A DNA stretch of 64,000 nucleotides, filler included, from Stramenopiles sp. TOSAG23-3 (taxonomy: Eukaryota): the NCBI GenBank assembly GCA_900128585.1. It is 11 parts of 11 records of this genome, joined end to end, with 100 filler letters (N's around TTAATTAATTAA, not from the genome) between each part and the next. Parts side by side here need not be neighbours in the genome. Positions count along the whole stretch, not along the records: positions 1 to 7,460 come from LT643153.1; 10 more parts are not named here. The stretch is one strand, 5' to 3'. The first letter of the stretch is position 1; the number at the start of each line of letters is the position of its first letter. The translations under genes were made by a program, and so were the position numbers. The notes beneath the pieces are model-generated. The model saw nothing but the letters and a program-made list of their open reading frames with translations, had not been told where the DNA came from and did no database searches. This document shows positions 6,130-6,732 of the stretch, one piece after another.

Positions 6130-6732
6130 CTAGAGTCTTACCTGAATCGGATTAGTCACACCGTTGCCTGCGAATCCACCACTCCCTCTTGGGTTCCCTG
6201 AGAAACCCCAATGGCCTTTATTTTTATCTCGGAACCCGACGTCTTCGTTGTCAAGTTCGTCGAATTGGTGGTAATTGTTATGTCGGAACCCGCCCTCGCC
6301 CCCGACGTCTTCGTTGTCAAGTTCGTCCTCGGCCTTTCCGAAGTATGGGAGTTCGAGGTTTGGCATTCCGCTCCGGGGGTCCCAGCCACGCCCGGGTCCG
6401 CTGACTTGGTTGTTTCCCCAAGGAGAACCCACGCCTTCGTTGTCAAGTTCGTCAGTTTCATCGGCGAAAGGTACAGTCATACCGTTGCCTGCGAATCCAC
6501 CACTCCCTCTTGGGTTCCCTGAGAAACCCCAATGGCCTCCGACGTCTTCGTTGTCAAGTTCATCGGCGAAAGGTACAGTCATACCGTTGCCTGCGAATCC
6601 ACCACTCCCTCTTGGGTGCCCTGAGAAACCCCAATGGCCGAGCCTCCGGTGGGCACCAAGACGGGCCTCTGACTCTCCAGTCAAGAGTGCAATAGCTGCA
6701 AACGCATAGATTGCTACGCTTGGAAGTTTCAT
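6130..6732 (-). CDS. Secreted multi-core peptide precursor (prohormone/RiPP-like)
   Basis: 200-aa ATG ORF: hydrophobic signal peptide, RRL site, four DELDNE(D/G)VG acidic spacers, three GHWGFSG(H/N)PRGSGGFAGNG cores and two unique cores. Confidence 0.88.
   Translation of the reverse strand: MKLPSVAIYAFAAIALLTGESEARLGAHRRLGHWGFSGHPRGSGGFAGNGMTVPFADELDNEDVGGHWGFSGNPRGSGGFAGNGMTVPFADETDELDNEGVGSPWGNNQVSGPGRGWDPRSGMPNLELPYFGKAEDELDNEDVGGEGGFRHNNYHQFDELDNEDVGFRDKNKGHWGFSGNPRGSGGFAGNGVTNPIQVRL

Follow-up and report, generated by a model that had tools for sequence, protein, structure and literature searches.

Is a short, spacer-studded secreted protein of an uncultured marine eukaryote a precursor that is cut into several peptides, or one modular protein that stays whole? 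The question is raised by a locus of Stramenopiles sp. TOSAG23-3, at positions 6130..6732 (minus strand) of a 64,000-nucleotide (nt) stretch of DNA, hereafter the window. The locus is an uninterrupted, intron-less open reading frame (ORF) of 200 amino acids (aa), running from ATG to a TAG-type stop, in which a hydrophobic N-terminus and SEA|RLGAHRRL are followed by five Gly/aromatic-rich segments (cores, or cassettes) with four DELDNE(D/G)VG spacers between them. Judged from sequence, its product is a member of a family, not described before, of secreted, cassette-built and intrinsically disordered pre-pro-proteins.

Layout of the ORF and its protein family

The predicted signal peptide (MKLPSVAIYAFAAIALLTGESEA, residues 1–23, 6664..6732; all parts of the gene lie on the minus strand) reaches a Kyte–Doolittle 11-residue maximum of 2.5 at residue 6, compared with 0.79 anywhere after residue 31. 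It is predicted to be cut after S-E-A, with small residues at −3 and −1 of the signal-peptidase site as read from the sequence. The pro-piece RLGAHRRL (8 aa, residues 24–31, 6640..6663) ends in RRL (29–31), which is invariant in the family. Core 1 (GHWGFSGHPRGSGGFAGNGMTVPFA, residues 32–56, 6565..6639) is separated by spacer 1, DELDNEDVG (residues 57–65, 6538..6564), from core 2 (residues 66–90, 6463..6537), which equals core 1 except for H to N, with 1 of 69 compared bases differing. Spacer 2 (DETDELDNEGVG, 6427..6462), that is (DET)DELDNEGVG with its nonamer at residues 94–102, leads to core 3 (SPWGNNQVSGPGRGWDPRSGMPNLELPYFGKA, residues 103–134, 6331..6426), a core also present in the relatives P0002, P0003 and P0005. 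Spacer 3, EDELDNEDVG (nonamer at residues 136–144, 6301..6330), precedes core 4 (GEGGFRHNNYHQF, residues 145–157, 6262..6300), found in this gene only among the fetched proteins. Spacer 4, DELDNEDVG (residues 158–166, 6235..6261), shares 27 of 27 bases with the DELDNEDVG of spacer 3, and core 5, FRDKNK plus GHWGFSGNPRGSGGFAGNGVTNPIQVRL (residues 167–200, 6133..6234), ends in -RL directly ahead of the stop codon (6130–6132). The acidic runs measure 9, 12, 10 and 9 aa, with an extra DET before the second spacer and an extra E before the third; apart from these minor additions, the ORF, the signal-peptide-like N-terminus, RRL, the four spacers and the five segments are as the first-pass annotation gave them. 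The 169 residues after the leader include G 38, N 16, D 14, F 12, E 12, P 11 and S 9. AlphaFold returned a mean predicted local distance difference test score (pLDDT) of 42.3 for P0001 (five-sequence alignment), in which helix 6–18, within the signal peptide, is the sole secondary structure, and a poor model (pLDDT 41.7) for the Cys-rich relative P0021; the protein is predicted to be disordered, with no fold.

Relatives were collected by a word-indexed protein search (4 among 8000 scored candidates), a full hidden Markov model (HMM) scan of 1.84 billion representatives (10 proteins at E ≤ 1e-3) and a profile search (26 proteins), and cluster look-ups brought further ones. The family set comprises 50 proteins (P0001–P0051 minus P0013), and in 42 the leader is complete. 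Environmental assemblies are the source of every one, and no functional name is attached to any. P0013 (743 aa, E 6.9e-4) was dropped from the counts: it lacks the leader and resembles core 3 in nothing but a GPGRG...SGMP stretch. The closest relatives, independently assembled (P0002–P0007), have the same leader and the same DELDNEDVG spacer with differing cassette sets, which include a core foreign to the window (LYFSPNGRGASGRGGPGGGFSAG...) and a two-Cys core; independent assemblies also agree on the protein ends. More distant members form at least five subfamilies, sorted by first core, with the leader consensus MK[LIF][PQ]S.A..A.AAIA...G.SEARL...RRL. Eighteen leader columns, including S21, E22, A23, R24, L25, R29, R30 and L31, are invariant in nine aligned members of five subfamilies. 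Between five subfamily representatives the 31-aa leader is 68–90% identical (mean 76%), and the sequence after it is 26% identical against 24% in shuffled controls, that is, indistinguishable from them.

Every subfamily has cores separated by acidic runs that end in Val/Ala/Ile-Gly (DEMDDEEVG, DEEAG, DENAG, DELVG, DEMDDDESVG and DELEEDEDVG are examples). Across 22 semi-non-redundant members, [VAI]G occurs within 0–2 residues after 46 of 57 acidic clusters, compared with a mean of 4.3 (standard deviation 1.9, maximum 13 in 1000) when the non-acidic residues were shuffled. The C-terminus is -RL in 36 of the 50 proteins (NRL 15, FRL 10, VRL 4, RRL 4, LRL 2, CRL 1), and several members, e.g., P0008, P0009, P0016 and P0021, carry an internal xRRL directly ahead of a new core. 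Paralogues with the same spacer and different cores, for which the first-pass annotation had proposed a search, therefore exist, and they are part of a larger family that keeps its leader and an acidic-[VAI]G grammar but has cores unrelated to each other.

The cores behave as interchangeable units. In the window gene, GHWGFSG is found after RRL as well as after DVG, and G-x-x-x-AWNAGW comes after RRL and after AVG in P0010 and P0016; because the same core starts occur after either, RRL and [VAI]G boundaries are equivalent in position. The 85 distinct segments reduce to 39 core types, 22 Cys-free and 17 with Cys. The Cys count is even (2, 4, 8 or 10) in all 17 Cys-bearing types and odd in none, the exception being one F>C variant within a Cys-free core type. 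In P0027 (300 aa, environmental), family cassettes with their acidic-[VAI]G spacers come after another signal peptide and an 8-Cys module present twice, a fusion which indicates that the cassette-plus-spacer unit is portable between genes.

Known families offered no counterpart. In Pfam, none of 10 family members had a match at the gathering threshold (best 17.5 bits versus a cut-off of 27), and no known structural repeat family, the match that might have undone the earlier proposal, appeared there. The ESM Atlas gave no usable match, and searching PDB sequences with P0016 and P0021 brought up no meaningful match (best E-value 0.39). A literature search, with supplements and subscription papers outside its scope, found no account of the family or of the acidic-[VAI]G junction, in agreement with the first-pass annotation, which knew of no such family in protists. 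By these comparisons the family is real and fairly widespread, its junction grammar is new and cassette shuffling is visible within it.

Cassette exchange and RNA coverage

The repeat pattern of the ORF is far beyond chance. Two of the four spacer copies are identical at 27 of 27 bases and the others differ by 1–3 bases; the differences among the three GHWG cores amount to 1, 5 and 6 of 69 bases. Tandem Repeats Finder (TRF) reported a 102-nt unit in 1.9 copies with 91% matches, and a repeat finder reported four 42-nt copies, each containing the spacer. Between relatives that are nearly identical, cassettes have been exchanged, duplicated or dropped. Metagenome loci L001, L003 and L002 contain 1, 2 and 3 TFSPGGPAPIPSWMG units, respectively, the 60-nt units being 97–98% identical, and other family members differ by entire cassettes with the frame always kept. 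The near-identical spacer and unit DNA together with the cassette swaps point to unequal recombination at the spacers as the likely mechanism of cassette change.

An inverted partial copy of the gene lies at ~5490–5747 on the plus strand, as seen by translation, tblastn and inverted repeats I1–I8. It reads as a spacer remnant, an FRNKNK-GHWG core, DEAEAEYIG, an SPWGNN core and a stop. Its arms I1–I8 are 80–100% complementary to pieces of the gene (86–100% for the five arms of at least 44 nt), and P0028 matches it at 100% over residues 12–96 in tblastn. The copy (5490–5747) lacks both the leader and an in-frame start within the window, and is probably a pseudogene relic.

Part of window 5400–6900 was found in 20 of 24 listed public runs from 14 studies, with 6 rows being RNA, and at least half of its words were present in 2 rows among the listed runs. 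Contigs from four RNA libraries of four studies (one metatranscriptomic, one oligo-dT, two polyA) include pieces with 0–2 differences, most with 0, that cover 5991–6782. This RNA-covered stretch gives a minimal transcript extent of 5991..6782 on the minus strand, from ~50 nt ahead of the ATG to ~140 nt beyond the stop. The pieces lie at 5992–6177 and 6637–6782 in X18 (records 10, 13), at 5991–6189 and 6637–6766 in X20 (records 19, 20, 22), at 6087–6189, 6240–6360 and 6640–6766 in X12 (records 4, 6, 8), and at 6013–6227 and 6636–6780 in X7 (records 28–30). They are colinear with the DNA, which indicates no intron. X18 record 13 has 90 other letters in place of 183 nt, an in-frame difference of 93 nt that represents a cassette variant. 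RNA contigs of X7 also cover most of a sulfatase gene on the same contig, and those of X20 part of it, so the organism's RNA appears to be in these libraries; the sulfatase lay outside the run search. The peptide gene is apparently expressed, and the RNA check suggested earlier found it among RNA-library contigs.

Three joints in the RNA contigs were rejected as splicing. Those at 6042>6428 and 6262>6636 (X7) have short sides of 24–26 letters, and that at 5687/6381 (X12) is an opposite-strand joint; all three were read as assembly jumps through the repeated spacer or the inverted copy. Stretches 3600–3723, 6824–6947 and 7072–7300 have no RNA-contig cover, which is not evidence of transcript limits.

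Proposed processing, known precursors and rival explanations

We favour, at somewhat better than an even chance, a polyprotein precursor that would be cut at RRL and at the acidic-[VAI]G junctions into several small secreted peptides. After import into the endoplasmic reticulum, signal peptidase would cut after SEA, as expected from the −3/−1 rule. RLGAHRRL would then be removed after RRL by an RXL-type endoprotease like the one proposed in diatoms, and the chain would be cut again after each [VAI]G, since this position is equivalent to RRL|, with the acidic tails trimmed after cleavage. The window gene would yield five peptides of 13–34 residues: three of GHWGFSG type (25–34 aa), one 32-aa SPWGNN-type peptide and the 13-aa GEGGFRHNNYHQF. 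Counted from the sequence, each spacer has a net charge of about −5 and the cores 0 to +4, and the acidic spacers may mask the weakly cationic cores in transit until release; charge masking of cores by acidic pro-parts occurs in antimicrobial-peptide precursors. An extracellular role is most likely, and defence or antagonism, or possibly signalling, by Gly/aromatic/His-rich and disulfide-bearing peptides is our guess.

A more elaborate proposal, which we hold only tentatively, is a combinatorial secreted-peptide arsenal in a unicellular marine eukaryote. A conotoxin-like leader would direct secretion; the spacers would act both as cleavage signals for an undescribed protease, beside the RXL protease, and as recombination joints; and the cassettes would be linear Gly/aromatic peptides and small disulfide knots, giving population-level diversity of toxins, antimicrobials or mating/recognition signals. 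Animals, fungi and plants have provided well-studied multi-peptide precursors, and algal examples are known among silica-forming diatom proteins and in single cases such as a Chlamydomonas amidated peptide. If the precursor reading is true, the family would amount to an expressed, widely distributed system of secreted peptides in a marine protist not yet in culture, and its new junction grammar, an acidic run plus [VAI]-Gly, would imply an undescribed processing enzyme. Rapid peptide diversification would be made visible by cassette shuffling at identical spacers. The family offers dozens of short candidate peptides, linear and disulfide-bonded, that could be synthesised for bioactivity tests.

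As far as sequence can tell, the layout works like that of known polyprotein peptide precursors, and the family is a member of none of those compared. Conotoxin and frog-skin precursors combine a conserved signal/pro-region with hypervariable, often disulfide-rich mature peptides, a toxin/defence pattern, and usually release one C-terminal mature peptide behind a basic site. The family resembles this type in a leader at 76% identity and a remainder at 26%, and differs from it in having several cassettes per precursor and acidic-[VAI]G joints. In the precursors of Impatiens Ib-AMP, the cores are separated by acidic pro-pieces. Ib-AMP is a case of several small peptides from one transcript (PMC4695807), and armadillidin is a peptide rich in Gly, Phe, His and Asn with the motif GGGF(H/N)(R/S) (PMC5031766), which GEGGFRHNN, GSGGFAGNG and PGGGFHHNGN of the present family resemble in composition. 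The likeness to Ib-AMP, armadillidin and shepherins is one of composition and layout, not homology, and the cores here are much less cationic.

Fungal KEPs have a signal peptide and multiple cores between constant processing motifs, with roles as pheromones, toxins and effectors (PMC6339444). Like these proteins, which include alpha-factor and the ustiloxin/dikaritin precursors, the family appears to consist of secreted multi-core precursors with constant motifs between cores. Its repeats are not set between dibasic KR/RR Kex2 sites (KEPs have at least three such repeats), the only RR being that of the leader RRL. KEP repeats are identical or near-identical, whereas here a single protein combines unrelated cores, its spacers are of the acidic-[VAI]G kind and it comes from a non-fungal host. 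In cnidarian preprohormones, acidic D/E residues precede every copy on its N-terminal side, and processing at these residues has been discussed as a possibility (PMC7523074). The family is like them in having many peptide copies with acidic rather than basic residues N-terminal of each; the cnidarian copies end in Gly plus basic residues (convertase cleavage, amidation), but the present family has neither, its cores are longer (13–60 aa) and its host is unicellular. Dibasic or Gly-amidation flanks of animal prohormone type are absent from it, the cores ending in FA, KA, QF, GY or PY and then D/E.

The diatom systems are the closest parallel for RRL. The 'RXL domain' of diatom biosilica proteins is a short segment behind the signal peptide with RRL at its end, removed by a protease not identified there (PMC5525289), and silaffin/silacidin precursors have RXL after the signal peptide and at repeat ends, a proposed signal that releases individual peptides (PMC4557024, PMC5525289). 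The family shares with Sil1p and the silacidins a signal peptide, a short pro-region to RRL/RXL, a repetitive body and an R-x-L-type end of the last unit. The diatom-type pairing of a signal peptide with RXL is found here (hydrophobic N-terminus, RRL 29–31), RRL is invariant, xRRL recurs inside several members and 36 of 50 end in -RL. An RXL at the end of each repeat unit is not: the four internal boundaries are DELDNE(D/G)VG and only the C-terminus has -VRL. The cores are Gly/aromatic/Asn/His-rich or Cys-rich, unlike the Lys/Ser-rich units of silaffins and the Ser/Asp/Glu-rich units of silacidins, and there is neither sequence similarity to silaffins or silacidins nor a silica link.

The host lineage was approached through a neighbouring gene, a PPME1-like alpha/beta hydrolase (2008–3117, minus strand, same contig). 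Among the matches listed for it, environmental relatives stand at 100%, 54% and 43–40% identity; the first taxon-named match is Chromera velia (42% over 77% of the query), and sequences of oomycetes, animals and plants come next, at 30–40%. No diatom occurs among the 120 listed matches (8000 word-sharing candidates scored), and cluster look-ups added no taxon. By these sequence matches a diatom origin is not supported, and the host is best described as an uncultured marine eukaryote. Of the diatom link that the first-pass annotation drew from RxL, the analogy stands and the placement does not: the diatom RXL literature serves here as a parallel for the motif, not as a guide to the host.

Several observations weigh against the preferred reading. 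The sameness of the spacers inside the window gene reaches synonymous sites, which points to recent duplication or recombination and is not in itself a sign of selection for a protease site; for this reason, the case for selection on the spacer rests solely on the divergent subfamilies. The constant spacer before unrelated cores that was noted earlier shows, within this gene alone, young repeats or recombination. Eleven of the 57 acidic clusters have no [VAI]G, 14 of the 50 proteins have no -RL end (some being truncated predictions), and the non-redundant set and the core types still contain close relatives and are not fully independent. The cores of the window gene are weakly cationic, unlike typical antimicrobial peptides. 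The RNA-library contigs are assemblies that may derive from DNA and are not proof of transcription, strand, ends or level, and no single one spans the full coding sequence. We know of no protease for acidic-[VAI]G junctions, and no tailoring or protease gene was found in the 7.4-kb contig or in the 9.1 kb around the family member of L003, which is weak evidence because the contigs are short. Even Cys counts and modularity would equally fit self-folding modules of an uncleaved protein. Such a protein, uncleaved or leader-trimmed, secreted, disordered and modular, could be a cell-surface, wall, scale, adhesive or biomineral-matrix component in which the acidic runs bind cations or mineral and the Gly/aromatic cassettes are sticky or assembling modules. 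Diatom biosilica-associated proteins, which are also repeat-bearing, typically have a signal peptide with an RRL 'RXL domain'; the predicted disorder, the low-complexity Gly/Asn/Asp/Phe-rich composition and the lack of a processing protease gene at either locus suit an uncleaved protein, and surface proteins commonly show repeat-number polymorphism. We nevertheless find this main rival doubtful: a conserved leader with unrelated cores is the pattern of a precursor family, not of a structural one; a given core start can stand after RRL or after [VAI]G; the Cys count is even in every Cys-bearing segment; and both the Lys/Ser-rich or phospho-Ser-rich composition of silaffins and silacidins and any sign of a diatom host are missing.

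If the cores were excised as in cyanobactins, dikaritins or cyclotides and then tailored by cyclisation, cross-linking or amidation, the gene would encode the precursor of a peptide synthesised by the ribosome and modified post-translationally (RiPP), as had also been suggested at first. The constant flank with a variable core suits this, and many cores start with Gly and are followed by Asp, a likeness to asparaginyl-endopeptidase-cyclised plant peptides, whose layout is a Gly start and a following Asp. Nothing points to RiPP-type tailoring. The residue two positions past the Asp is not consistently hydrophobic across subfamilies, and cyanobactin-type clustering with protease, macrocyclase or tailoring genes is seen neither on the 7.4-kb contig, where the neighbours are the sulfatase, the PPME1-like hydrolase and a membrane protein, nor in the 9.1 kb of L003, which shows no synteny with it (weak evidence, given the short contigs); we consider a RiPP-like precursor quite improbable. 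An artefact, be it an ORF that arose by chance in repetitive DNA or a repeat assembled wrongly, is more improbable still, to the point of being already contradicted. Repeats do break short-read contigs, no RNA contig spans 6453–6637 unchanged, and ORFs overlapping the gene are also present on the opposite strand; yet the leader is 68–90% conserved across subfamilies with wholly different downstream sequence, every cassette variant is in frame and independent assemblies give the same protein ends. Between these rivals, the precursor cut at RRL and acidic-[VAI]G remains the reading that we prefer.

Contig, neighbouring genes and a recurrent motif

The whole window consists of 11 separate contigs (eight of ~7.4 kb, three of ~1.15 kb) joined by N44-TTAATTAATTAA-N44 linkers, and the gene's own contig is window 1..7460, with (AAAG)n runs at its bounds. 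Microsatellites such as (AAAG)n, (GAA)n or similar, found at several contig ends, are probably the cause of the assembly breaks. The same contig encodes a membrane protein (785–1624), the PPME1-like hydrolase and the secreted sulfatase (541 aa, 3768–5393, plus strand; PF00884, E 1.5e-31). The sulfatase has its own signal-peptide-like N-terminus, unlike that of the peptide gene, contains the active-site motif C-A-P-S-R and is placed head-to-tail ahead of the inverted gene fragment. It was considered as a tailoring enzyme and rejected: nothing links it to the peptide gene, and the neighbours of the L003 member differ. That member lies at 3009–3449 of L003, and its sole identified neighbour is a protein-kinase-like ORF of 1180 aa with a charged coiled-coil-like tail (L003 4353–7895, minus strand), named from sequence alone. 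Rfam gave 0 matches across the window.

A conserved motif of ~30 nt (TTAAAACAAGAAAATTGGCTGTTATTTAAG), often with TAATTAAAT behind it, recurs on several window contigs and in L003. Window copies are at 5765–5795 (+), 42738–42767 (+), 42774–42805 (+), 13942–13911 (−), 13760–13791 (+), 54111–54080 (−), 16882–16912 (+) and 10819–10848 (+); those of L003 are at 1134–1103 (−), 1535–1504 (−) and 4170–4202 (+). The motif has no Rfam match and was not found in the literature. Five of the eight window copies lie in sense orientation 30–330 nt downstream of the stop of a long ORF, which suggests a 3'-untranslated-region or transcript-end element of this organism. RNA-contig depth is very high at 5708–5831 because many different RNA contigs share the motif. 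The stretch just downstream (5809–5925) can be read on the plus strand as ...DSDHAWSTHENDSQDEVTIDY*, with no sign of coding found. It has weaker copies at 17104–17020 (76% over 85 nt) and 13848–13789 (82% over 60 nt), RNA contigs match it at 90–95% with loose ends before ~5812, and it looks like a dispersed intergenic or 3'-region repeat.

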